DNA of 64,000 nucleotides, from the NCBI RefSeq assembly GCF_013122565.1, contig NZ_CP053258.1; one strand, 5' to 3'. Below are positions 1 to 11,537 of the stretch, piece after piece. The notes beneath the pieces were generated by a model. The model did no database searches. It was not told the DNA's origin and worked only from the letters and a program-made list of their open reading frames with translations. Within the stretch, counting starts at the first letter, position 1. Every line of letters starts with the position of its first letter. Source of the stretch: Escherichia coli (lineage in GTDB: Bacteria; Pseudomonadota; Gammaproteobacteria; Enterobacterales; Enterobacteriaceae). The translations under genes and the position numbers were made by a program.

Positions 1-294
1 TATCTGAATCAGCTTTCAGCGCAGGGCATTCGCGTGGTCGGCATGAACTATAAAGACGATCGCCAGAAGGCAATCAGCTGGCTGAAAGAGCTGGGCAATC
101 CTTACGCGCTAAGCCTGTTTGATGGCGACGGCATGTTAGGGCTGGATCTCGGTGTCTATGGCGCGCCAGAAACGTTCCTTATTGACGGCAACGGCATCAT
201 TCGCTATCGCCATGCGGGCGATCTCAATCCTCGCGTCTGGGAAGAAGAGATCAAGCCGCTGTGGGAGAAATACAGTAAGGAGGCCGCACAATGA
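1..294 (+). CDS. ccmG: Thiol:disulfide interchange protein CcmG/DsbE, C-terminal part (5' end lies outside the window)
   Basis: Reading frame is open from base 1; translation (…LIDGNGIIRYRHAGDLNPRVWEEEI…) matches the CcmG/DsbE thioredoxin-fold C-terminus; the stop overlaps the ccmH start (ATGA at 291-294). Confidence 0.8.
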   Translation, partial: YLNQLSAQGIRVVGMNYKDDRQKAISWLKELGNPYALSLFDGDGMLGLDLGVYGAPETFLIDGNGIIRYRHAGDLNPRVWEEEIKPLWEKYSKEAAQ

Positions 295-1343
295 GGTTTT
301 TATTGGGCGTGCTGATGCTGATGATCTCCGGCTCAGCGCTGGCGACCATCGACGTGTTGCAGTTTAAAGATGAAGCACAGGAACAACAGTTCCGTCAGCT
401 CACTGAAGAACTGCGCTGCCCGAAATGCCAGAACAACAGCATTGCCGATTCCAACTCGATGATTGCCACCGACCTGCGCCAGAAAGTGTATGAACTGATG
501 CAGGAAGGTAAAAGTAAAAAAGAGATTGTCGATTATATGGTGGCGCGTTACGGCAACTTCGTCACTTACGATCCGCCGTTAACGCCGCTGACCGTATTGC
601 TGTGGGTGCTGCCAGTAGTGGCTATTGGCATTGGCGGTTGGGTCATATACGCCCGCTCGCGGCGTCGGGTACGCGTGGTGCCGGAAGCGTTTCCTGAACA
701 AAGCGTGCTGGAAGGTAAGCGTGCCGGATATGTTGTTTATCTGCCGGGTATTGTGGTGGCGTTAATTGTGGCTGGCGTCAGCTACTACCAGACTGGCAAT
801 TATCAGCAGGTGAAAATCTGGCAGCAGGCCACGGCACAGGCTCCGGCGTTGCTGGACAGGGCGCTGGATCCGAAAGCTGATCCGCTCAACGAAGAAGAGA
901 TGTCGCGCCTTGCGCTGGGGATGCGTACTCAACTGCAAAAAAATCCGGGAGATATAGACGGCTGGATTATGTTGGGCCGCGTTGGCATGGCGCTGGGTAA
1001 CGCCAGTATTGCCACCGATGCATACGCTACTGCATATCGCCTCGATCCGAAGAACAGTGATGCTGCACTGGGTTACGCTGAAGCGTTGACACGTTCATCT
1101 GATCCCAACGACAACCGCCTGGGGGGTGAACTACTACGCCAGTTGGTGAGAACGGACCATAGCAATATCCGTGTGTTAAGCATGTATGCGTTTAATGCCT
1201 TTGAGCAGCAGCGATTTGGCGAAGCCGTTGCCGCGTGGGAGATGATGTTGAAACTCTTACCTGCCAACGATACTCGCCGTGCTGTGATTGAACGTAGTAT
1301 CGCGCAGGCGATGCAACATTTGTCGCCGCAGGAGAGTAAATAA
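291..1343 (+). CDS. ccmH: Cytochrome c-type biogenesis protein CcmH (fused CcmH/CcmI type, 350 aa)
   Basis: 350-aa ORF with signal peptide, an LRCPKCQN heme-handling motif, a transmembrane segment and a TPR-like C-terminal domain; position after ccmG. Confidence 0.9.
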   Translation: MRFLLGVLMLMISGSALATIDVLQFKDEAQEQQFRQLTEELRCPKCQNNSIADSNSMIATDLRQKVYELMQEGKSKKEIVDYMVARYGNFVTYDPPLTPLTVLLWVLPVVAIGIGGWVIYARSRRRVRVVPEAFPEQSVLEGKRAGYVVYLPGIVVALIVAGVSYYQTGNYQQVKIWQQATAQAPALLDRALDPKADPLNEEEMSRLALGMRTQLQKNPGDIDGWIMLGRVGMALGNASIATDAYATAYRLDPKNSDAALGYAEALTRSSDPNDNRLGGELLRQLVRTDHSNIRVLSMYAFNAFEQQRFGEAVAAWEMMLKLLPANDTRRAVIERSIAQAMQHLSPQESK

Positions 1344-1347
1344 AAAG

Positions 1348-1380
1348 TGGCCCGATGGTGATTCCATCGGGCTATTTTTA
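1348..1380. terminator. Putative bidirectional intrinsic terminator between the convergent ccmH and narP genes
   Basis: GC-rich hairpin (cccgatgg…ccatcggg) followed by a T-rich run, immediately after the ccmH stop. Confidence 0.5.
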
Positions 1381-2025
1381 TTGTGCCCCGCGTTGTTGCA
1401 GGAACAGAATGGTGGCCGCCACGCGTGAGCGGACATTGAGTTTACGCAGCAGATTGCGAATATGTACTTTTACTGTCTGCTCGGAAATATTCAACACCGA
1501 GGCAATTTGTTTATTTGACAGCCCCTGTGCCAGCTCGTGCAGAACATCCAGCTCGCGCTCCGTCAGCACGCTGAAGGGATCTTCTTCCGCGCCAAACATT
1601 TCACGTTCACGCAAGTACTGATTGACGCGTTCGCTAAAGACTTTGCTGCCTTTCGCTCCGGCACGAATCGCTTCCAGCAACACTTCCGGGTCGCTGTCTT
1701 TCAACAGATAACCGTCTGCGCCTGCGTCTATCAGCGCAAAGACATCGCTGGAGGCATCTGATACGGTCAGGATAATAATTTGCGCGGTAACGCCATCCCT
1801 GCGCAAGGCATTGAGGGTATCCAGGCCACTCATACCTTTCATATTGAGATCCAGCAAGATCACGTCGATATCCAGTCTATTCGCCAGATCGATAGCACTC
1901 GCGCCGTCGCCTGCTTCGGCGACCACTTCAAAGCCAGGATCAAGCTCCAGTAACTGACGAACACCGCGTCGCATAAGTGGATGATCATCCACAATCATCA
2001 CCTGAAAAGGCGTTGCTTCAGGCAT
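1378..2025 (-). CDS. narP: Nitrate/nitrite response regulator NarP (NarL/FixJ family)
   Basis: Translation starts MPEATPFQVMIVDDHPLMRRGV…; receiver domain plus LuxR-type HTH; start trimmed to the internal ATG giving 215 aa. Confidence 0.9.
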   Translation of the reverse strand: MPEATPFQVMIVDDHPLMRRGVRQLLELDPGFEVVAEAGDGASAIDLANRLDIDVILLDLNMKGMSGLDTLNALRRDGVTAQIIILTVSDASSDVFALIDAGADGYLLKDSDPEVLLEAIRAGAKGSKVFSERVNQYLREREMFGAEEDPFSVLTERELDVLHELAQGLSNKQIASVLNISEQTVKVHIRNLLRKLNVRSRVAATILFLQQRGAQ

Positions 2026-2344
2026 AGTAGTCTCCTGAGGTTTTATTAGAATCATTATGTTTGAGCGTAGCGTTGGTAACGCTACCAGGCGCGTGAATGT
2101 TACCCCATTTTATGTATGGACATGTAGTGAAAACTACAACCTTGTCGTTCGCTTCGGCATCATTTTCATTATAAAGACGGAATTTTGCATCAGCTTCTCA
2201 TCAAGAAAAACACCTAAAAAATCAATCACAATACTTGTGCATTTCTTTAAACAGTTTTTAAAAACTGACTCCGGGTATGGAGCTATGGGTATTTTCCGTA
2301 CCCAATGCTTTTAACAGCAATTAATTTCATAGGATGAAAGCTCA

Positions 2345-4936
2345 ATGCATCAATCTGGTTCTGTTTCTCTTTGTCGTTCCGCAATATCTGTTCTGGTGGC
2401 TACAGCGTTATATTCACCCATAGCATTGGCATCAACAGTTGAGTATGGTGAGACAGTTGATGGTGTTGTCCTGGAAAAAGATATCCAGCTGGTTTATGGG
2501 ACCGCCAATAATACGAAAATCAATCCTGGCGGAGAACAGCATATTAAAGAATTTGGTATAAGTAGTAATACTGAAATTAACGGCGGGTATCAGTACATTG
2601 AAATGAATGGCACCGCAGAATACTCCGTATTAAATGATGGTTATCAAATTGTTCAAATGGGTGGCGCGGCAAACCAGACTACCCTCAATAATGGTGTGCT
2701 ACAGGTTTATGGCGCAGCGAATGATCCCACGATTAAAGGCGGGCGCTTAATCGTTGAAAAAGATGGGATTACCGTCCTTGCCGCTATCGAAAAGGGAGGA
2801 TTACTGGAGGTTAAAGAGGGGGGGTTAGCGATTGCGGTAGATCAGAAAGCCGGCGGTGCTATTAAAACAACCACGCGGGCCATGGAGGTATTCGGAACAA
2901 ACCGTCTCGGTCAGTTCGATATCAAGAATGGTATTGCTAACAATATGCTGTTGGAAAACGGCGGAAGTTTGCGAGTTGAAGAAAATGACTTCGCTTATAA
3001 TACTACTGTAGATAGTGGCGGCTTACTGGAGGTTATGGATGGCGGGACTGCAACTGGCGTTGATAAAAAAGCAGGCGGAAAATTAATTGTCTCAACGAAT
3101 GCGCTGGAAGTGAGTGGTACAAACAGTAAAGGCCAATTTAGTATAAAAGATGGTGTGTCAAAAAATTATGAACTGGACGATGGTTCCGGGCTCATTGTTA
3201 TGGAGGACACGCAGGCCATTGATACTATCCTTGATGAGCATGCCACTATGCAATCGCTGGGAAAGGATACTGGTACGAGAGTGCAGGCAAATGCGGTATA
3301 TGATCTGGGTCGATCAGATCAGAATGGAAGTATCACGTATTCCTCTAAAGCCATCTCTGAAAATATGGTTATCAACAATGGCCGCGCTAATGTCTGGGCA
3401 GGCACAATGGTTAACGTTTCAGTCAGAGGGAATGATGGCATTCTTGAGGTCATGAAGCCGCAAATAAATTATGCACCCGCTATGTTGGTGGGTAGTGTCG
3501 TGGTTTCTGAGGGCGCTTCTTTAAGAACGCATGGTGCCGTGGATACCAGCAAAGCGGATGTTTCGCTCGAAAATAGCTCATGGACCATCATTGCCGATAT
3601 CACTACGACGAACCAAAACACCCGCCTCAATTTAGCCAACCTTGCGATGTCTGGCGCAAATGTGATTATGATGGATGAGCCAGTGACTCGTTCATCTGTG
3701 ACGGCAAGTGCGGAAAATTTCACTACGTTGACCACCAATACCCTGTCGGGAAACGGCAATTTTTATATGCGTACCGATATGGCTAATCATCAGAGCGATC
3801 AGCTCAACGTCACCGGACAGGCAACAGGTGATTTCAAAATATTCGTGACGGACACCGGTGCCAGCCCGGCAGCAGGAGATAGCCTTACACTGGTAACAAC
3901 GGGCGGCGGTGATGCTGCATTTACGTTGGGCAATGCCGGAGGCGTTGTTGATATCGGTACGTATGAATATACCTTGCTGGATAATGGCAATCATAGCTGG
4001 AGTCTGGCAGAGAATCGCGCGCAAATTACCCCTTCAACCACTGATGTGCTAAATATGGCGGCAGCACAACCGCTGGTATTTGATGCAGAACTGGACACCG
4101 TGCGTGAGCGTCTTGGTAGCGTAAAAGGCGTTAGTTACGATACGGCGATGTGGAGTTCGGCAATTAACACCCGCAACAACGTGACCACTGATGCGGGCGC
4201 TGGTTTTGAGCAAACATTGACGGGCCTGACGCTCGGTATCGATAGCCGTTTCTCCCGTGAAGAAAGCAGTACAATTCGCGGCTTGTTCTTTGGTTACTCT
4301 CATTCTGATATTGGTTTTGATCGCGGCGGCAAAGGCAATGTCGATAGCTATACCCTGGGTGCTTATGCCGGTTGGGAGCATCAGAACGGTGCCTATGTTG
4401 ATGGGGTGGTGAAAGTTGACCGTTTTGCCAACACCATCCATGGCAAGATGAGTAATGGGGCAACAGCGTTTGGCGATTACAATAGTAACGGCGCGGGTGC
4501 TCATGTTGAGAGCGGGTTCCGTTGGGTTGACGGATTGTGGAGTGTTAGACCCTATCTGGCCTTTACCGGCTTTACCACAGATGGTCAGGACTACACGTTA
4601 TCAAACGGCATGCGCGCGGACGTGGGAAATACCCGGATATTACGCGCTGAAGCGGGAACGGCGGTAAGCTATCACATGGACCTGCAAAACGGTACGACGC
4701 TGGAACCCTGGCTGAAAGCCGCCGTGCGTCAGGAATACGCCGATTCTAACCAGGTGAAAGTTAATGACGATGGCAAATTTAATAATGATGTGGCTGGAAC
4801 CAGTGGCGTTTATCAGGCTGGGATAAGGTCATCGTTTACCCCGACGTTAAGCGGTCATTTGTCAGTCAGCTATGGCAATGGCGCAGGGGTAGAATCACCG
4901 TGGAATACTCAGGCGGGTGTGGTCTGGTCGTTCTGA
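2345..4936 (+). CDS. yejO: Adhesin-like autotransporter (type Va secretion), apparently intact, 863 aa
   Basis: N-terminal signal peptide, repetitive Gly/Thr/Asn-rich passenger region, C-terminal beta-barrel translocator ending in …AGVVWSF; located next to tRNA-Pro and narP. Confidence 0.8.
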   Translation: MHQSGSVSLCRSAISVLVATALYSPIALASTVEYGETVDGVVLEKDIQLVYGTANNTKINPGGEQHIKEFGISSNTEINGGYQYIEMNGTAEYSVLNDGYQIVQMGGAANQTTLNNGVLQVYGAANDPTIKGGRLIVEKDGITVLAAIEKGGLLEVKEGGLAIAVDQKAGGAIKTTTRAMEVFGTNRLGQFDIKNGIANNMLLENGGSLRVEENDFAYNTTVDSGGLLEVMDGGTATGVDKKAGGKLIVSTNALEVSGTNSKGQFSIKDGVSKNYELDDGSGLIVMEDTQAIDTILDEHATMQSLGKDTGTRVQANAVYDLGRSDQNGSITYSSKAISENMVINNGRANVWAGTMVNVSVRGNDGILEVMKPQINYAPAMLVGSVVVSEGASLRTHGAVDTSKADVSLENSSWTIIADITTTNQNTRLNLANLAMSGANVIMMDEPVTRSSVTASAENFTTLTTNTLSGNGNFYMRTDMANHQSDQLNVTGQATGDFKIFVTDTGASPAAGDSLTLVTTGGGDAAFTLGNAGGVVDIGTYEYTLLDNGNHSWSLAENRAQITPSTTDVLNMAAAQPLVFDAELDTVRERLGSVKGVSYDTAMWSSAINTRNNVTTDAGAGFEQTLTGLTLGIDSRFSREESSTIRGLFFGYSHSDIGFDRGGKGNVDSYTLGAYAGWEHQNGAYVDGVVKVDRFANTIHGKMSNGATAFGDYNSNGAGAHVESGFRWVDGLWSVRPYLAFTGFTTDGQDYTLSNGMRADVGNTRILRAEAGTAVSYHMDLQNGTTLEPWLKAAVRQEYADSNQVKVNDDGKFNNDVAGTSGVYQAGIRSSFTPTLSGHLSVSYGNGAGVESPWNTQAGVVWSF

Positions 4937-5000
4937 TAACAGAAAATAAACAGGCTGTGATGTGTCGCGGTCTGTTTATCGAATTAAATGCAGATATAAA

Positions 5001-5030
5001 AAAACCAACCGTAAAGGTTGGTTTTTTTTG
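5001..5030. terminator. Bidirectional intrinsic terminator (serves yejO on + and tRNA-Pro on -)
   Basis: Hairpin aaccaacc-gtaaa-ggttggtt flanked by an A-run upstream and a T-run downstream. Confidence 0.65.
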
Positions 5031-5037
5031 GGATTTT

Positions 5038-5114
5038 TGGTCGGCACGAGAGGATTTGAACCTCCGACCCCCGACACCCCATGACGGTGCGCTACCAGGC
5101 TGCGCTACGTGCCG
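5038..5114 (-). tRNA. proL: tRNA-Pro
   Basis: 77-nt sequence on the minus strand reading CGGCACGTAGCGCAGCCTGGTAGCGCACCGTCATGGGGTGTCGGGGGTCGGAGGTTCAAATCCTCTCGTGCCGACCA, with a paired acceptor stem, T-loop GGTTCAAATCC and encoded CCA. Confidence 0.85.
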
Positions 5115-5188
5115 ACTCGTGGCTGTTAATACTACCGTTTTCCACACCGATTGCAAGTAAGATATTTTGCTAACTGATTTATAATTAA

Positions 5189-6949
5189 TCAGTTAGCGAT
5201 AAAACGCTTCTCGTCTGTCAGTACTTGCAATAACAAACTTAACTGTGGTTTTTCATCTTTCACTCTTTCACCACGTAAGTTGTAAGTACGGTATTTACCG
5301 TTATTGTTCAGCACCAGCGTCTTTTTCGGGGTGGTAATTGCCAGCGTATCGTTATCCGCGGCGGTAACCCAGTAATGACGGCGTTGAGGGTTGAACAAAT
5401 CCTGACCTTGCGAATATTCGCTGGCAGGTGTGCTGACATGTAGCAGGCGTTGCATCAGCGTCGTCATCAGATCGGTATGATCAGTCAGAGCATTAATACG
5501 CTGCGCCGGCGTGCCTGGCCAGTGAATCACTAATGGTACCTGCAGATGACCGTGGGACCAGTCAAAGGTTTCTTCCTCTTCGCTCAGCGGAATACCCCGA
5601 CCGGCAGTGATAATCACCACCGTATTGTCCAGTTTGCCAGAATCACGCAGTGCATTGAGCACGCGGTTGATCTGGTCATCGACATTGCCTGCCGCCCGGC
5701 TATATTTCCGTGAAAATGCCTGCTGATTGCTGTCGTCAATGTTAGTGCCATTGAAAGAGACCCACGAGAACCAGCGGTTATCTTCTTGTGCGTAGCGGCC
5801 CAGCCAGTTGATCCACTGCGTGGCGGTCTGCTCGTCGGATTGGGTGCGTACGCTCGGCATCGAGAAATCTGACAACAATGCCTGGCGATACAGCGGGCTG
5901 GTAAAGCCATCTGACGAGAATAACCCCAGCTGATAGCCTTGCTGATTAAGCGCAGTAATTAACGCCGCAGGGGTACGGGTCGACAGAATGCCGTCCATAT
6001 AGCTCGGCGAGATGCCATAGAACAGGCCAAAGATGCCGTTGTCTGTAGTGTTGCCGGAGCTCATATGGCGCGTGAACGAAATATTTTGCTCAGCAAAACC
6101 TGCCAGCGCAGGCATCTGCTTCTCGAAGCGTGAGTAGTTCAGGCCATCGACAGTAATCAACAGCACATTCTGCCCAGTGCCCATATCGCGATAGCGCAGT
6201 TCGCTTAACGGATACTGAACGGAAACGGCGTCTGGATTACCTTGCTCAATAAGACGGCGTTGATACTCCTGCGCATCAAGCAGGCCATGCTTCTCAAGAA
6301 AACGTCGCGCCGTCATCGGGTACGAAAGCGGCAGGTTAGCGCGCTGCATGGTGATCGGGCGATAGAAGTTGGCATCGGCCCAGATATACACCACATGCGA
6401 GGCGATAAAGGCGATAAATAAGAATGCGGCCAGCGGGCGCGCGAAGCGTCGACGACGCGTCAGGCTGCGCAGCTTTTGCCAGCTCCACGTCGCAAACACC
6501 AGTTCAAGCAATAAAATAACCGGCACGCTGATGAACATCAGCTGCCAGTCGCGCGCCATCTCATTTTCGTCTGGGTTGATAACCAGTTGCCAGACGATGG
6601 GATTAAGATGGAGATGGAAACGAGTAAAGACTTCGCTATCGATCAGTAATAGCGTCATTCCCGCCGTTGCCAGAATGACGGACAAAAACCTCATCAGCCT
6701 CTGGGAGCCGACGATAAAGGTCAGCGGGAAGAGGATTAGCAAGTAGGTGGCAAACACCAGGAAGCTGAAATGGCCGATAATGCTTACGTAGGAATAAATG
6801 CGACCAGCAAGCGTGGTCGGCCAGTCGGCGATAAACAGGTAACGGCTGCCAATGACGAGCGAAAGCAGAATATTGAACAGTGCAAACCAGTGCCCCCAAC
6901 TGACCATCTGGGAGACTTTTTCACGGTAGCGCTGACGATGAGTTACCAT
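5189..6949 (-). CDS. yejM: Inner-membrane sulfatase-fold protein YejM/PbgA (regulator of LPS/cardiolipin homeostasis)
   Basis: 586-aa ORF with five N-terminal transmembrane helices and a periplasmic alkaline-phosphatase/sulfatase-like domain; conserved position. Confidence 0.9.
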   Translation of the reverse strand: MVTHRQRYREKVSQMVSWGHWFALFNILLSLVIGSRYLFIADWPTTLAGRIYSYVSIIGHFSFLVFATYLLILFPLTFIVGSQRLMRFLSVILATAGMTLLLIDSEVFTRFHLHLNPIVWQLVINPDENEMARDWQLMFISVPVILLLELVFATWSWQKLRSLTRRRRFARPLAAFLFIAFIASHVVYIWADANFYRPITMQRANLPLSYPMTARRFLEKHGLLDAQEYQRRLIEQGNPDAVSVQYPLSELRYRDMGTGQNVLLITVDGLNYSRFEKQMPALAGFAEQNISFTRHMSSGNTTDNGIFGLFYGISPSYMDGILSTRTPAALITALNQQGYQLGLFSSDGFTSPLYRQALLSDFSMPSVRTQSDEQTATQWINWLGRYAQEDNRWFSWVSFNGTNIDDSNQQAFSRKYSRAAGNVDDQINRVLNALRDSGKLDNTVVIITAGRGIPLSEEEETFDWSHGHLQVPLVIHWPGTPAQRINALTDHTDLMTTLMQRLLHVSTPASEYSQGQDLFNPQRRHYWVTAADNDTLAITTPKKTLVLNNNGKYRTYNLRGERVKDEKPQLSLLLQVLTDEKRFIAN

Positions 6950-7377: not shown

Positions 7378-8385
7378 ATGAGTCTGGATATCAACCAGAT
7401 TGCTCTGCACCAGCTTATCAAGCGTGATGAGCAGAACCTTGAGCTGGTGTTGCGCGATTCATTGCTGGAACCGACAGAAACCGTCGTTGAGATGGTGGCA
7501 GAACTGCATCGGGTCTATAGCGCCAAAAATAAAGCTTACGGCTTGTTTAGCGAAGAGAGTGAACTGGCGCAGACGCTGCGCTTACAGCGTCAGGGCGAAG
7601 AGGACTTTCTGGCATTTAGCCGCGCGGCAACCGGTCGCCTGCGTGACGAATTAGCGAAATATCCTTTTGCTGACGGTGGATTCGTGCTGTTTTGCCACTA
7701 CCGTTATCTGGCGGTGGAGTATCTGCTGGTGGCAGTCCTGAGCAACCTGAGCAGTATGCGCGTTAACGAAAATCTCGACATCAACCCAACCCATTATCTT
7801 GATATCAATCATGCGGATATTGTTGCGCGTATCGATTTAACCGAATGGGAAACCAATCCAGAGTCGACCCGCTATCTCACTTTCCTGAAAGGGCGAGTAG
7901 GGCGCAAAGTGGCGGATTTCTTTATGGATTTCCTCGGGGCCAGCGAAGGGTTAAACGCGAAAGCGCAAAACCGTGGGCTGTTGCAAGCGGTTGATGATTT
8001 CACTGCCGAAGCACAACTGGATAAAGCAGAGCGACAGAACGTGCGCCAGCAGGTTTATAGCTACTGTAATGAGCAGCTGCAGGCAGGCGAAGAGATTGAA
8101 CTGGAGTCGCTGTCGAAAGAGCTGGCAGGCGTCAGCGAAGTGAGCTTCACGGAGTTTGCGGCTGAAAAAGGCTACGAACTGGAAGAGAGCTTCCCGGCAG
8201 ACCGTAGCACACTGCGTCAGTTGACGAAGTTTGCCGGTAGCGGCGGTGGCTTGACTATTAACTTTGATGCGATGCTGTTAGGTGAACGCATCTTCTGGGA
8301 TCCGGCGACCGATACCCTGACCATTAAAGGCACGCCGCCGAATTTGCGCGACCAATTGCAGCGCCGGACGTCTGGTGGGAACTAA
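7378..8385 (+). CDS. yejK: Nucleoid-associated protein YejK (NdpA)
   Basis: 335-aa ORF ([19 protein letters not shown]…), conserved gene order. Confidence 0.9.
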
Positions 8386-8765
8386 ATCTCCAACGCGAAT
8401 GTTTCTTTTCGGAGAAACAGTTGCGGGATAATCACAATTCTTGTCAATCAGTTAGTGAGATGACTTGCTGATTGACCTTTCATTCGAAAATGTTTTCTCT
8501 GTTATTATACTTAGTGTTACTGAAAATATTATTCTCTTATCCCCTTTATTCGATAATAAATCGGTCTGGTCACTATTTCCGCCGTTTTTTGTGAGCTGTA
8601 ACACTGGAAAAATCATTCTGTTTAATTATATTGAGTTTACTTGGCGTTATATGTTGTTATTTGCTTTGACTATATAAAATGCAAATGTATTCTTAATGTC
8701 AATATTATTGTCGTTATGTTTGACTCATTATATTAATCGTATGAATAGTTTTAAGGATTCACCGC

Positions 8766-9338
8766 ATGGAGCAAGAAAATCCTGAAGATAGAAAGTGTTG
8801 TCGACCGAAAAAAACGTTCTCTTTAACCAGAAAATTACTGGTATGTTTTATCTTTACCCTCATTGTATTCAGTGGTTGTTTATTTGTCGTTATGAACACG
8901 GTCATTCATAACACCAGCACTGACAGCTTTTGCCTGGGTTGTCATGAAATGAAAGACAACATCCTTACCGAGAGTTTCAAAAAATCCATTCATGGCAGTA
9001 ATCGTACTGGCGTGAAAGTCGCTTGTGCCGATTGCCATATTCCTGATGAATTTGTCCCTAAGATGATCAGAAAAGCCCACGCCGTTAAAGAGGTTTGGGG
9101 GCATATGACAGGCGTAATTGATACGGCCGATAAATTCGATGCACATCGTGGCGAAATGGCAAAAGCGGAATGGGCAAGAATGAAAGCAAACAATTCGCAG
9201 GAATGCAGAGACTGCCACGATATTTCTAAATTACAGAAAAAATTTATGGCGCCGTTCCATGAGGCTTCTCTTAAAGAAGGGAAAACATGCATTGATTGTC
9301 ATGCCGGCATTGCACATAAATTACCAGCAGTTCATTAG
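8766..9338 (+). CDS. NapC/NirT/CymA-family membrane-anchored tetraheme cytochrome c (putative quinol dehydrogenase)
   Basis: 190-aa ORF with an N-terminal transmembrane helix and four CxxCH heme-binding motifs (CLGCH, CADCH, CRDCH, CIDCH); AAGGA Shine-Dalgarno sequence 8 nt upstream; AT-rich codon usage. Confidence 0.85.
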   Translation: MEQENPEDRKCCRPKKTFSLTRKLLVCFIFTLIVFSGCLFVVMNTVIHNTSTDSFCLGCHEMKDNILTESFKKSIHGSNRTGVKVACADCHIPDEFVPKMIRKAHAVKEVWGHMTGVIDTADKFDAHRGEMAKAEWARMKANNSQECRDCHDISKLQKKFMAPFHEASLKEGKTCIDCHAGIAHKLPAVH

Positions 9339-9431
9339 TCATTAATACATGAATGTCATGTCTGTCTGGTTTCAAATAAAAACAAGAAGGGTTTCATGTT
9401 GATTTAAGTTTTTATGTAAAAGGACCATGTT

Positions 9432-11072
9432 ATGAGGAAACTAAAAAGGGGATTCTTATTGGCTGGGGTATTAACGGCACTTTCTCTAAGCGCTTATGCT
9501 GACAGAAATATGAATAAGATCCCGCATATCAATCTGTCGAATCCATCCGTCGAACCAGTTAGTGAGAGAATAATCCAAACAGATATTGTTGTTATTGGCG
9601 GTGGGCTTTCTGGCATGTCCGCAGGGTTGACTGCAGTACAGGGCGGAGCCAAAGTTGTTATTTTTGAAAAACTACCAAGCCTTGGAGGGGCAGGCGTTTA
9701 TCCTGAAGGCAGTTTAGGCATTGGCACCCTTATGCAAAAAAAAGAGGGGAAAGGTGCCACGCTGAATCAAGCCTTTGGTAAGGCGATCGATTTCCATCAC
9801 TGGCGAGCCAATGCTAGTGCATTGCACGCATTAATGAAAAACTCAGGCGAAACCATTGATTGGGTTGCCAGTAATGGCGTTGAGTTTACGACCTTAAAAA
9901 CCACCATTTATCCTCAGTCAGATTCATTATGGACCTGGCATATGTATAAGCATAATGGTGCATCTGTTACTAAAAGCTTTTACAAGAAGATCCTTGATGG
10001 AGGTGGGCAAATCTACACCGAAACTCCTGTTAAGAAGATTCTTCGCGACAAACAAAGCGGTGATGTCGTTGGCGTCGAAGCGGTTAATAGCGTAACAGGG
10101 GAAAAAATCATTGCCTATGGTAAGGGTGTGATTGTGGCGACCGGTGGTTTTGCCAACAACCGTGACATGATTGAAAAATACATCACCGATGTGAATCAGA
10201 AAAACATGGTGCCGGTCAAACTACGTGGCCCCCTGATTGATGGACGCGAAGGCGATGGTATCAAAATGGGGCAAGACATTGGCGCTGATACTGCCGGGAT
10301 GCAAACCATTGCTGGCAATAGCCCATATGTCGATCAAGACCCTCCTATCCGTCAGTTTAATGGCGCGGATTACCAAAAACAGGCCAGAACGTCATTAAGC
10401 CAGCCATTCCTGTGGATTAACCGACAAGGCGAGCGTTTCTTTGATGAGTCACTCGGTTCCAGTTTTACCCTCGTTTATAACGCTATCACCATGAATGGCG
10501 GAGTCATGTATTCTGTCTGGGATGATGCAATGCGCCAGAAGATGGTTAACGAAGGGCCGGTTACACCGTTTAACGCCATCGTGTTGCCTGGGCAGCCGAT
10601 GAAGGCGCTGGATCAGGCGATCGAAATCGGCATGAAAGAAGGGTGGTTATTTAAAGGTGAAACGTTGGACGATCTGGCAAAACAGATCAATGTTCCTGCA
10701 GACAATCTGAAAGCGACGATTGCGAAAGTAAACAAGTATACGGATGAAGGTTTCGATCCTGACTGGGGGCGCAAGAAAGAGCATCTGTTTAAATTTCAGG
10801 ATAAAGGACCGTATTACGCCGTGAAAGGTATTCGGGCTTATTTCCTGACGCTGGGTGGTTTGAAAATGAACAGCGATCTGCAGGTCTACGATACCAATGA
10901 GAAGATTATCCCAGGTCTGTATGTTGTCGGGCAGGATATGGGCGGTCTGTATGACAGCTCCTATGATTTGGTACTTGAAGGATCGGCTTCTGGCTTTGCG
11001 TTGACGTCGGGACGTATGGCAGCGAAACATATTATAAGCACCAGAGTGCAGGCACAGGGAGGAGGCAAATGA
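9432..11072 (+). CDS. Periplasmic FAD-dependent flavoprotein reductase, fumarate-reductase/flavocytochrome-c family (substrate unknown)
   Basis: 546-aa ORF; signal peptide MRKLKRGFLLAGVLTALSLSAYA; dinucleotide-binding fold VVIGGGLSGMSAG; C-terminal FAD-binding motif of the FrdA/SdhA family (…GLYVVGQDMGG…); its stop overlaps the next start (ATGA). Confidence 0.85.
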   Translation: MRKLKRGFLLAGVLTALSLSAYADRNMNKIPHINLSNPSVEPVSERIIQTDIVVIGGGLSGMSAGLTAVQGGAKVVIFEKLPSLGGAGVYPEGSLGIGTLMQKKEGKGATLNQAFGKAIDFHHWRANASALHALMKNSGETIDWVASNGVEFTTLKTTIYPQSDSLWTWHMYKHNGASVTKSFYKKILDGGGQIYTETPVKKILRDKQSGDVVGVEAVNSVTGEKIIAYGKGVIVATGGFANNRDMIEKYITDVNQKNMVPVKLRGPLIDGREGDGIKMGQDIGADTAGMQTIAGNSPYVDQDPPIRQFNGADYQKQARTSLSQPFLWINRQGERFFDESLGSSFTLVYNAITMNGGVMYSVWDDAMRQKMVNEGPVTPFNAIVLPGQPMKALDQAIEIGMKEGWLFKGETLDDLAKQINVPADNLKATIAKVNKYTDEGFDPDWGRKKEHLFKFQDKGPYYAVKGIRAYFLTLGGLKMNSDLQVYDTNEKIIPGLYVVGQDMGGLYDSSYDLVLEGSASGFALTSGRMAAKHIISTRVQAQGGGK

Positions 11073-11479
11073 GTAAGCTATTGAAGAACATTGTCACAAT
11101 CATTCTTGCTGGCGTAATGTGCACCGTTATCGGTATGGTTTCTGCCAGTGCACAAGAGATTGTCGGCATGAAAATGCACAAGACCATTGGTCTGGAATGT
11201 AATAACTGCCATGTTGATGATGTTAAAGCCAACAAGAATATGACGCCAACGTGCGTTAGCTGCCATGCGCCTGGTGAGCGTTATTATCATGGTAAGAAGG
11301 ATTCAGAAGGTAACTCAGTGTTAAAAGAGTATCCGGAGTCGGGTAAAACACGAGTTGCGTCTTTCCATGACTCTCATGGCGGGGAAATTCGCTGTACGGT
11401 ATGCCATACGTCACATGAGAAGGAACCACAGCCACTCTATTGCAACAACTGCCATCAGTTTGATGTGAAGATTAAGTAG
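11069..11479 (+). CDS. Small periplasmic tetraheme cytochrome c
   Basis: 136-aa ORF with N-terminal signal/anchor and four CxxCH motifs (CNNCH, CVSCH, CTVCH, CNNCH); strong GGAGG ribosome-binding site; translationally coupled to the flavoprotein gene. Confidence 0.8.
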   Translation: MSKLLKNIVTIILAGVMCTVIGMVSASAQEIVGMKMHKTIGLECNNCHVDDVKANKNMTPTCVSCHAPGERYYHGKKDSEGNSVLKEYPESGKTRVASFHDSHGGEIRCTVCHTSHEKEPQPLYCNNCHQFDVKIK

Positions 11480-11504
11480 TGAAGGTATTTGTCAGTCGCT
11501 GAAA

Positions 11505-11537
11505 AAGAAAACGGCCCGTAAAGGCCGTTTTCTTTTG
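11505..11537. terminator. Bidirectional intrinsic terminator between the cytochrome gene (+) and rplY (-)
   Basis: Hairpin aaacggcc-cgtaaa-ggccgttt flanked by an A-rich stretch upstream and a T-rich stretch downstream. Confidence 0.65.

Follow-up and report, generated by a model that had tools for sequence, protein, structure and literature searches.

Organization of the locus

The window analyzed here, a stretch of 64,000 nucleotides of Escherichia coli DNA, carries a three-gene island of 3.1 kb between yejK and rplY, with breaks exactly at 8385/11533 when the E. coli reference locus is compared with the window by BLAST. The GC content of the island is 31-50%, against ~52% in its flanks, and its genes encode, in this order, a NapC/NirT-type cytochrome, a flavoprotein and a small cytochrome c. 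The main features are as follows.

1..1343, + strand: end of the host ccm operon, with the C-terminus of what we take to be CcmG (translation of 1-290), then presumably CcmH (ORF 291-1343)
8386..11532, + strand: island of three genes, replacing the normal yejK-rplY intergenic region of E. coli (BLAST breakpoints)
8386..8765, + strand: AT-rich upstream region (GC 31-36%), presumed location of the promoter and regulatory elements of a three-gene operon
8766..9338, + strand: membrane-anchored tetrahaem cytochrome c of the NapC/NirT family, 190 aa, putative quinol dehydrogenase (NCBIfam matches)
9432..11072, + strand: exported FAD flavoprotein, 546 aa, of the fumarate reductase/flavocytochrome c superfamily, VprA-like branch (NCBIfam and PDB matches)
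11058..11065, + strand: Shine-Dalgarno sequence GGAGGAGG of the cytochrome gene, within the 3' end of the flavoprotein ORF, 3-6 nt before the ATG
11069..11479, + strand: small tetrahaem cytochrome c gene, 136-aa precursor, ~108 aa when mature, taking cleavage after Ala28
11503..11536, no strand assigned: strong hairpin flanked by an A-tract and a U-tract, probable bidirectional terminator of the cytochrome gene and the convergent rplY (RNA fold)

The names CcmG and CcmH follow the E. coli map; the ORF at 291-1343 carries LRCPKC, its N-terminal domain matches the NrfF/CcmH family at 2.7e-37, and narP comes after the ccm genes in the window, as in E. coli. Any c-type cytochrome of the island would depend on Ccm for attachment of its haems. 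The NapC-like protein, with four CxxCH motifs and an N-terminal hydrophobic helix, matches TIGR02161 napC_nirT (E 2.7e-61) and NapC PRK10617 (E 5.5e-59), in both cases under the curated cut-offs.

Within 8386..8765, a scan for sigma-70-like promoters returned several weak matches, none above shuffles, and an FNR box (TTGATnnnnATCAA, with up to 2 mismatches) was found 0 times, its window-wide count not being above chance. This region contains a perfect 9-bp inverted repeat, GTCAATCAG/CTGATTGAC, at 8443-8477. At the other end of the island, the hairpin at 11503..11536 folds at -25.5 kcal/mol (z -4.9), with none of 200 shuffles as stable; the terminator came from RNA folding, a terminator pattern scan having given no match above shuffles.

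A small tetrahaem cytochrome c

An earlier note on this DNA had described a 136-aa ORF with four CxxCH motifs and a hydrophobic N-terminal signal, and exactly such an ORF is present on the + strand at 11069-11479, with the following features.

11069..11152, + strand: Sec-type signal peptide, residues 1-28, predicted cleavage between SASA and QE (by inspection of sequence)
11198..11212, + strand: haem-binding motif 1, CNNCH, residues 44-48 (direct reading; invariant in homologue alignments)
11252..11266, + strand: haem-binding motif 2, CVSCH, residues 62-66 (direct reading; invariant in homologue alignments)
11393..11407, + strand: haem-binding motif 3, CTVCH, residues 109-113, then the predicted distal-ligand His116; aligns with CTSCHSAH of Fcc3
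11441..11455, + strand: haem-binding motif 4, CNNCH, residues 125-129, inside YCNNCHQFDVK, which is common to Ifc3/Fcc3

By inspection, the N-terminus, MSKLLKNIVTIILAGVMCTVIGMVSASA followed by QE, combines a basic n-region, a hydrophobic core and an AxA-type cleavage site, and a comparable hydrophobic leader stands at the N-terminus of all cytochrome homologues in the alignment. Of the 140 segments between stop codons that reach 100 aa or more in the six frames of the window, the cytochrome ORF and the NapC-like ORF are the only ones with at least two CxxCH motifs. Since only these 2 of 140 segments reach that number, and since Pfam PF14537 (Cytochrom_c3_2, E 1e-12) matches from end to end (residues 36-130, model positions 1-79 of 79), the motif content of the cytochrome ORF is more than chance. 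Read from its sequence, 11069-11479 is a real small periplasmic four-haem cytochrome c and the haem partner of the upstream flavoprotein, with export to the periplasm and covalent haem attachment predicted from the Sec-like leader and from host ccmG/ccmH in the window.

The predicted haem ligands are conserved. In an alignment of 112 cytochrome sequences, the 14 invariant positions are those of the four CxxCH motifs together with His100 and His116, while His37 and His103 are kept at 90% or more, giving the pattern H..CxxCH..CxxCH..HxxH..CxxCHxxH..CxxCH that is conserved among homologues. All four of these histidines, the putative distal ligands, and the four haem motifs align in register with Fcc3. 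The best PDB sequence matches are the cytochrome domains of Ifc3 and Fcc3, with Ifc3 at 1.1e-6 from the single sequence, and hhalign against the N-terminal domain of Fcc3 gives 98.3% probability (E 2.6e-14). A family profile built from the 112 sequences finds Ifc3 at 2.3e-19, FccA at 5.6e-19, Fcc3 at 3.7e-18 and the small tetrahaem cytochrome STC at 2.4e-8. These matches support the homology that the earlier note had supposed with the tetrahaem part of Shewanella Fcc3/Ifc3, where cytochrome and flavoprotein are fused, and in the alignments it had called for the flavocytochrome domains (~1e-19) come out well ahead of STC. The fused flavocytochrome c3 class itself (Fcc3/Ifc3/FccA) does not apply to the window, where two ORFs in different frames share an ATGA overlap.

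Junction of the flavoprotein and cytochrome genes

The flavoprotein gene ends with TGA at 11070-11072 and the cytochrome ATG overlaps it by 4 nt, so that ATGA stands at 11069-11072, preceded by GGAGG, as had been noted before and as direct reading confirms. GGAGG in fact occurs twice, at 11058-11062 and 11061-11065, 6 and 3 nt ahead of the ATG. From this overlap the two genes had been called translationally coupled and their products stoichiometric, which overstates a case whose sole basis is the ATGA. In the relatives, junctions range from an 11-nt overlap to a 15-nt gap, with a Shine-Dalgarno sequence at each, and in RNA folding the ribosome-binding region of the window is less structured than 199 of 200 shuffles (z +2.04). 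Because the junctions vary, each has its own Shine-Dalgarno sequence and the ribosome-binding region is unstructured, independent initiation of the cytochrome gene is just as plausible as coupling; strict coupling and stoichiometry may be supposed from the overlap. A hairpin that sequesters the Shine-Dalgarno sequence and so enforces true translational coupling was considered and rejected, the region being unusually unstructured when folded against shuffles.

Conserved pairing with a flavoprotein gene

In every relative examined, covering six genera (Budvicia, Citrobacter, Oryzomonas, Telmatospirillum, Parasutterella and Ferrimonas) and several metagenomes, a FAD_binding_2 flavoprotein is encoded immediately upstream of the cytochrome gene, and Parasutterella has two such flavoprotein-cytochrome pairs in tandem. 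A NapC/NirT gene adjoins the pair in four lineages (Escherichia, Citrobacter, Budvicia and L005); the W. succinogenes cluster, as Simon et al. in 1998 are said to have described, also has a NapC/NirT-type gene, fccC. The arrangement first noted in the window, with a separately encoded cytochrome directly after the flavoprotein and behind a NapC/NirT-type cytochrome, thus stands, and the cytochrome-flavoprotein pairing is conserved in distant bacteria. As expected for a split flavocytochrome c, the multihaem cytochrome gene adjoins a FAD_binding_2 gene that is homologous to the Fcc3 flavin domain.

We consider it probable, judging from homology and gene order, that the ORF product is the haem-carrying subunit of a periplasmic flavocytochrome c made of two subunits, in which the cytochrome is most likely docked to the flavoprotein, in the role of the fused N-terminal domain of Fcc3, rather than acting as a free general shuttle. 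A freely diffusing shuttle resembling STC (CctA), carrying electrons from the NapC-like protein to the flavoprotein and possibly to other acceptors with no stable complex, would agree with a small, soluble, tetrahaem protein that is a separate polypeptide, and a weak similarity to CctA (NCBIfam NF047727, E 1.8e-5) and to STC structures points the same way; we nevertheless regard it as unlikely. The CctA score is 24.9 bits against an equivalog cut-off of 180 bits, on which grounds an STC/CctA identity was rejected, and the family profile favours flavocytochrome domains over STC by ~11 orders of magnitude. The cytochrome gene is paired with a flavoprotein gene in all relatives examined, whereas cctA, which encodes a promiscuous shuttle, stands by itself and is not known to be paired with a flavoprotein gene. 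Furthermore, conservation with Ifc3/Fcc3 is strongest at the haem III-IV end (YCNNCHQFDVK), which in the Fcc3 structure faces the FAD domain. The term shuttle, used in the earlier note, is also made doubtful by the haem protein of S. woodyi ArdAB, whose behavior is that of an indispensable subunit: ArdA and ArdB stayed together on fractionation, and activity depended on ArdB even in assays with methyl viologen (bioRxiv 10.1101/2024.02.11.579808).

The partner flavoprotein

The flavoprotein scores best with the model of the vinyl phenol reductase VprA (NF053717; 311.7 bits, E 8.8e-93, positions 7-479 of 481, cut-off 600), followed by flavo_cyto_c TIGR01813 in NCBIfam (172.8 bits, cut-off 285), and its PDB matches include urocanate reductase (6t85, 8e-36) and Fcc3/FccA (1e-22 to 1e-26). 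Its signal peptide, MRKLKRGFLLAGVLTALSLSAYA, is short and has no RR, the Tat hallmark of the characterized split systems; among the ~33 exported family members listed, RR occurs in the leader of two (P0202 and P0204), and the other leaders are ~20-25 aa long and lack it. Not every flavoprotein of this kind is paired: a Brenneria homologue (52% identical) lacks a neighboring cytochrome gene, and in Syntrophus and Syntrophorhabdus, relatives of the flavoprotein (~51% identical) have no signal peptide.

Sequence alignment indicates that His365, Arg402, His504 and Arg545 of Fcc3 are all replaced in the window flavoprotein, with Ser/Gly, Leu/Phe and Tyr at the Arg402, His504 and Arg545 positions in both HMMER pairwise and MAFFT alignments; residues of the Arg402/His504/Arg545 type are retained in the fused Fcc3-like controls (P0181 and P0187) and in Ferrimonas L023. 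With four fumarate-binding and catalytic residues replaced, a fumarate reductase function was rejected, and the flavoprotein is therefore not a fumarate reductase of the Fcc3 type. Its active site, as predicted from these positions, would exclude fumarate and probably other 2-enoate carboxylates too. A consistent clue to the substrate was sought among neighbor genes elsewhere (LysR regulators, MFS/GntP transporters, AspA/Dcu, SIP), and none was found.

The missing Arg, which is the proton donor of the reductases, also bears on the direction of electron flow, as do the 3-ketosteroid dehydrogenases among the flavoprotein relatives and its moderate matches to ketosteroid and other dehydrogenases. 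They would suit a chain running in reverse, in which the flavoprotein is a periplasmic dehydrogenase and electrons pass from FAD through the tetrahaem cytochrome and the NapC-like protein to the quinone pool. We think this very unlikely: VprA, a reductase, reaches 311.7 bits vs ~125 bits or less for the dehydrogenases, the characterized cytochrome-linked members (Fcc3, UrdA, ArdAB, Mrd) are all one-way reductases, and NapC/NirT proteins normally oxidize quinol.

Distribution and decay of the island

Megablast found no match to the island, a rare one in Escherichia, in 5,426 complete E. coli genomes, and the plasmids searched likewise gave none. The yejK-rplY site is also occupied in E. albertii, cryptic Escherichia and Citrobacter sp. 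Cu233, and tblastn finds all three genes intact in the E. albertii type strain, Escherichia sp. MOD1-EC7003 and Citrobacter sp. Cu233. In other relatives, the flavoprotein ORF is broken up into 2-3 fragments (L010 and L013), and E. albertii flavoproteins of 520 and 504 aa are N-terminally truncated, with the cytochrome unchanged in both cases. With the flavoprotein gene broken or N-terminally truncated in some Escherichia genomes, the locus is, as far as these sequences tell, decaying in part of the genus. A literature search on this locus in E. albertii found nothing relevant.

Such losses beside an unchanged cytochrome, and the absence of the island from all of the complete E. coli genomes, would fit a decaying remnant, whose cytochrome ORF is intact merely for lack of time and has no current function in this strain. 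That seems to us highly improbable, as none of the three ORFs in the window is shortened, signal peptides, Shine-Dalgarno sequences and a terminator are all in place, and the trio is intact in the three genomes named above. Substitutions are, moreover, strongly biased to synonymous sites: against the Budvicia homologue, pN of the cytochrome gene is 0.15 vs a pS of 0.84, these two values being given alone since saturation of synonymous sites makes dN/dS not computable. The cytochrome gene is under purifying selection.

Proposed mechanism and significance

As the haem subunit of a two-subunit flavocytochrome c, the cytochrome would be exported as a precursor by Sec, and the host Ccm system would attach four c-type haems, all of them presumably bis-histidine ligated. 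The mature protein of ~14-15 kDa would then take electrons from the membrane-anchored NapC/NirT-type (CymA-like) quinol dehydrogenase of the island, and its haem chain would hand them to the FAD of the flavoprotein encoded upstream, which would reduce a periplasmic substrate other than fumarate. We infer, rather than observe, that haem is loaded, which way the electrons run and that the two proteins form a complex; the same goes for translational coupling.

More tentatively, and with doubt prevailing over confidence, the three genes may form an uncharacterized respiratory module, with electrons passing from quinol to the NapC-type protein, the tetrahaem cytochrome and a Sec-exported VprA-like flavoprotein, which would acquire its FAD after export, not via Tat, and reduce, in the periplasm, a C=C substrate that is not a carboxylate (e.g. 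vinylphenols or another gut- or plant-derived alkene). If so, E. coli proper would have lost an electron acceptor for anaerobic respiration that the module gives to some Escherichia and Citrobacter lineages. The module, a putative accessory periplasmic reductase, has a fixed chromosomal position in E. albertii, cryptic Escherichia clades, a Citrobacter and rare E. coli-like strains; finding its substrate would extend by one the electron acceptors known for anaerobic respiration in enterobacteria, and the flavoprotein, a member of a large uncharacterized branch, would offer a tractable case of export without a Tat signal in an Escherichia host.

The cytochrome itself changes little, being annotated by NCBI already as 'cytochrome c3 family protein' and belonging to a published architecture, that of split flavocytochromes c. 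Since two-gene versions of the Shewanella flavocytochrome c are already known, its identification is correct but fairly ordinary, and its context is of modest value.

Comparison with known systems

Shewanella Fcc3 (1qjd), FccA (1d4d) and Ifc3 (1qo8) have the same order and register of haem motifs and distal His residues as the window cytochrome, with the C-terminal motif YCxxCHxFDxK in common, and their tetrahaem domain feeds a FAD domain homologous to the window flavoprotein. That domain is fused at the N-terminus in the Fcc3-type proteins, whereas the window cytochrome is a separate polypeptide encoded downstream, with an insert between haem motifs 2 and 3 that is ~15 residues longer (KEYPESGKTR, a predicted beta-hairpin); the window flavoprotein, unlike Shewanella Fcc3, lacks the fumarate-binding residues. 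STC/CctA of Shewanella, small, soluble, periplasmic and tetrahaem, is of the same Pfam family and aligns over all four haems.

Among the split systems, the acrylate reductase ArdAB of S. woodyi and the ArdAB-like pair of Ferrimonas senticii (L023) have the same order, a flavoprotein followed across a tight junction by a small Sec-exported tetrahaem cytochrome. In S. woodyi this cytochrome (ArdB) ran at ~18 kDa, and activity required expression of both genes (bioRxiv 10.1101/2024.02.11.579808). The Ferrimonas and window cytochromes are 33% identical (E 3e-17). Flavoproteins of the ArdA type carry a Tat signal (RRTILK in L023) and retain an Arg/His site for the carboxylate (IHYTMGG, SRLGG), both of which the window flavoprotein lacks, and ArdAB adjoins dddY with no NapC gene of its own, whereas the island has a NapC-like gene (bioRxiv 10.1101/2024.02.11.579808). 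W. succinogenes FccA, with a separate 146-aa four-haem subunit, and Geobacter Mrd/Mcc likewise combine, in one operon as here, a periplasmic flavoprotein and a separate multihaem cytochrome c as its physiological donor, and in Geobacter sulfurreducens AM-1 Mrd activity depends on Mcc (PMC4427408). Both flavoproteins use Tat signals (RRDLIK and RRDFLK), unlike that of the window, Mcc has 231 aa and up to seven haem motifs against four in the 136-aa window cytochrome, and the substrates of the Mrd/Mcc and W. succinogenes FccA types are (meth)acrylate or unknown (PMC4427408).

The closest named relative of the window flavoprotein is VprA of Lactiplantibacillus plantarum, a full-length match that stays under the cut-off; VprA has no described export signal or cytochrome partner and is taken as cytoplasmic, whereas the window flavoprotein is exported and cytochrome-linked. 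As the latter has neither a twin-arginine signal nor the substrate-binding and catalytic residues of Fcc3, the analogy with ArdAB or Fcc3 may fail in detail. The split arrangement is not new, ArdAB, Mrd/Mcc and W. succinogenes FccA with its haem subunit having been published, and the window departs from these systems, as judged by alignment and model scores, in two respects: a flavoprotein leader without twin arginine, and the replacement of the Fcc3 residues in a protein whose best score is with VprA.

Homology of the tetrahaem cytochrome to Fcc3

Both homology and conserved synteny support the core reading of the earlier note, in which a split cytochrome of the Fcc3 type serves the adjacent flavoprotein. 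The genes concerned are:

8766-9338 (+), tetrahaem protein of the NapC/NirT family, upstream of the flavoprotein gene (TIGR02161, 2.7e-61)
9432-11072 (+), 546-aa flavoprotein
11069-11479 (+), 136-aa tetrahaem cytochrome, with CxxCH motifs at residues 44 (CNNCH), 62 (CVSCH), 109 (CTVCH) and 125 (CNNCH)

The cytochrome ORF, noticed earlier for its four motifs and N-terminal signal, is real, and its leader (MSKLLKNIVTIILAGVMCTVIGMVSASA, followed by QE) looks by inspection like a Sec signal peptide. The window contains 140 six-frame segments of 100 aa or longer, of which just two, the cytochrome ORF and the NapC-like ORF, carry at least two CxxCH motifs; since Pfam Cytochrom_c3_2 (PF14537) also matches the cytochrome end to end (E 1e-12), the four-motif pattern is not a product of chance. 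In a single-sequence query of the PDB, the top solved relatives were the N-terminal tetrahaem domains of the fused Shewanella flavocytochromes Ifc3 (1qo8, 1.1e-6) and Fcc3 (3.4e-4 to 3.5e-4). A profile of 18 close homologues placed the probability of a match to the Fcc3 domain at 98.3% (E 2.6e-14), and the Fcc3 sequence used is consistent with the PDB alignment. The alignment to Fcc3/Ifc3 and to the Shewanella small tetrahaem cytochrome (STC/CctA) that the earlier note had proposed revealed clear similarity: a profile of 112 four-haem homologues, found by searching 1.84 billion representative proteins, matched Ifc3 at 2.3e-19, FccA at 5.6e-19 and Fcc3 at 3.7e-18, and STC/CctA at only 2.4e-8. 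Against the NCBIfam CctA equivalog the cytochrome scored 24.9 bits, under the cut-off of 180, and we regard a free, STC-like shuttle as unlikely.

The 14 invariant positions of the 112-sequence alignment are those of the four CxxCH motifs, His100 and His116; His37 and His103 are kept at 90% or more, and His74 has no conservation among the homologues aligned. The pattern H..CxxCH..CxxCH..HxxH..CxxCHxxH..CxxCH matches that of Fcc3 exactly, and in Fcc3 all four haems have bis-His ligation. Conservation between the cytochrome and Ifc3/Fcc3 is highest at the haem III-IV end (YCNNCHQFDVK), which adjoins the FAD in the Fcc3 structure; this fits a putative docking of the cytochrome onto the flavoprotein. 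Residues about 67-99 (KEYPESGKTR) form a subfamily-specific insert, a beta-hairpin by prediction. The close subfamily is rare, with 6 representatives below 1e-30 among the 1.84 billion proteins and 7 loci from a pattern-limited scan of ~100,000 species genomes. The cytochrome and flavoprotein, though unrelated in sequence, are reported as members of one 90%-identity cluster (248 members); either clustering error or an assembly in which the two ORFs are fused or read through may explain this.

Conservation of the gene pair and its junction

Each relative examined has a FAD_binding_2 flavoprotein gene followed immediately by the cytochrome gene (Budvicia aquatica, L002/L020; Citrobacter, L019; metagenome loci, L005 and L007; Telmatospirillum, L008/L022; Oryzomonas, L016; Parasutterella, L021; Ferrimonas, L023). 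A NapC/NirT gene adjoins the pair in Escherichia, Citrobacter, Budvicia and L005, and is absent beside the other loci. Changes between the cytochrome and its Budvicia counterpart are mostly synonymous (pN 0.15, pS 0.84; dS saturated). Divergence is very unequal across the three window proteins (8766-11479), with identities for the flavoprotein, tetrahaem cytochrome and NapC-like protein of 93%, 77% and 66% to Citrobacter (L019), and 84%, 70% and 50% to Budvicia (L020). The Parasutterella gut MAG contig carries two tandem flavoprotein-cytochrome pairs (55-1415 and 3412-5309), in line with the large reductase arsenals reported for gut Burkholderiaceae such as Sutterella (bioRxiv 10.1101/2022.12.26.521950). 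Brenneria (L015, 2795-5551) and Budvicia (L002, 1699-2496) both have a FAD_binding_9/SIP gene of the siderophore-interacting-protein type close to the flavoprotein gene, which in Brenneria is without a cytochrome partner.

The start-stop overlap described earlier was recovered, with the cytochrome ATG at 11069 overlapping the flavoprotein TGA (11070-11072) and a Shine-Dalgarno sequence, GGAGGAGG (11058-11065), placing two GGAGG cores 6 and 3 nt before the ATG. Translational coupling and stoichiometric co-expression, which had been read from this overlap, are not established. Among the junctions compared, the ATGA is restricted to the Escherichia/Citrobacter lineage. Of 200 shuffles of the cytochrome initiation region, 199 are more structured than the native sequence (z +2.04), so that independent ribosome initiation is also possible. 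The six junctions measured (window, L002, L005, L007, L008, L016) vary in spacing between an 11-nt overlap and a 15-nt gap, with a Shine-Dalgarno sequence at each.

The partner flavoprotein

The flavoprotein scored highest against VprA vinyl phenol reductase (311.7 bits, cut-off 600) and also matched flavo_cyto_c (172.8 bits, cut-off 285); in the PDB it matched urocanate reductase (8e-36) and Fcc3/FccA (1e-22 to 1e-26). Pairwise HMMER alignments, and a multiple alignment that included two fused Fcc3-like proteins as controls, place roughly Asn, Ser/Gly, Leu/Phe and Tyr at Fcc3 His365, Arg402 (the proton donor), His504 and Arg545, residues retained in both controls and in Ferrimonas. Since all four are replaced, the flavoprotein is, on sequence grounds, not a fumarate reductase, and it is probably no 2-enoate-carboxylate reductase of known type; the VprA match hints, speculatively, at a non-carboxylate alkene as substrate.

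Its signal, MRKLKRGFLLAGVLTALSLSAYA (9432-9503, residues 1-24), is short and without a twin arginine, as in nearly all exported family members, which suggests Sec export followed by FAD uptake in the periplasm, as proposed for the fused Shewanella enzymes. Among the homologues compared (P0191-P0226), the closest relatives share a conserved mature N-terminus, DRNMNxxPxINGxNP. The family is large and unnamed, and includes cytoplasmic proteins from Syntrophus, Syntrophorhabdus and Desulfobacter; the ~51%-identical homologues in the first two lack signal peptides, and all are unnamed.

The island and its chromosomal setting

Together the three genes make up an island of low GC content, 3,147 bp long (8386-11532), that exactly replaces the yejK-rplY spacer within an E. 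coli-type order (ccmG'-ccmH-narP-yejO-yejM-yejL-yejK / island / rplY-radD-rsuA-bcr). The first part of the window (1-2055) carries the tail of the cytochrome c maturation operon, which we take from the E. coli map to be the CcmG C-terminus and then CcmH, followed by narP, and haem-attachment machinery is thus encoded about 7 kb from the island. Between the cytochrome gene and convergent rplY, a strong GC-rich 14-bp hairpin with A-tract and U-tract flanks (11503-11536; -25.5 kcal/mol, z -4.9) is probably a bidirectional terminator; it occupies the place of E. coli's own rplY terminator and REP-like sequence. At the island start, ~60 nt past the yejK stop, a perfect 9-bp inverted repeat, GTCAATCAG(N17)CTGATTGAC (8443-8477), could be a regulator site or an insertion leftover. 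A search of the 380-bp region upstream of the operon gave no FNR box.

The island had zero matches in 5,426 complete RefSeq E. coli genomes and in PLSDB plasmids, and occupies the equivalent position in E. albertii, cryptic Escherichia clades, unclassified Escherichia and Citrobacter sp. Cu233, a distribution that suggests either an ancestral island since lost by E. coli proper or exchange via flank recombination. Some Escherichia genomes have a flavoprotein gene that is broken into 2-3 ORFs or lacks the N-terminal signal, the latter giving E. albertii proteins of 520 and 504 aa (L010, 3365-5004; L013, 3366-5004; L012, 3442-5004), and in these genomes the cytochrome protein is identical. In some members of the genus the locus appears to be in decay, and such broken or truncated genes would suit a non-functional remnant; in the window all three genes are intact, and we find this explanation very unlikely here.

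Comparison with known split flavocytochromes

Electrons would most likely pass from menaquinol to the NapC-type membrane cytochrome, then to the tetrahaem cytochrome, acting as the bound haem subunit of the flavoprotein, and through its FAD to the substrate; a reversed, dehydrogenase chain seems very improbable. The split arrangement is already known, and the proteins are already annotated generically at NCBI ('cytochrome c3 family protein', 'FAD-dependent oxidoreductase' and 'NapC/NirT family cytochrome c' in Escherichia, E. albertii and unclassified Escherichia). The less ordinary aspects lie only in the partner flavoprotein and the island distribution. In S. woodyi ArdAB, whose gene order is that of the window (flavoprotein gene, then tetrahaem gene), periplasmic acrylate reductase activity needed expression of both genes, and ArdA and a haem band fractionated together (bioRxiv 10.1101/2024.02.11.579808). 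The Mrd of G. sulfurreducens is dependent on the cytochrome Mcc, and a separate 146-aa subunit with four haems accompanies FccA in W. succinogenes (PMC4427408). Tat signals are present in the flavoproteins of known split systems (RRDLIK, RRDFLK; PMC4427408) and in the ArdA-like Ferrimonas flavoprotein (RRTILK); all the characterised systems (ArdA, Mrd, W. succinogenes FccA) export the flavoprotein by Tat, whereas that of the window has no twin arginine.
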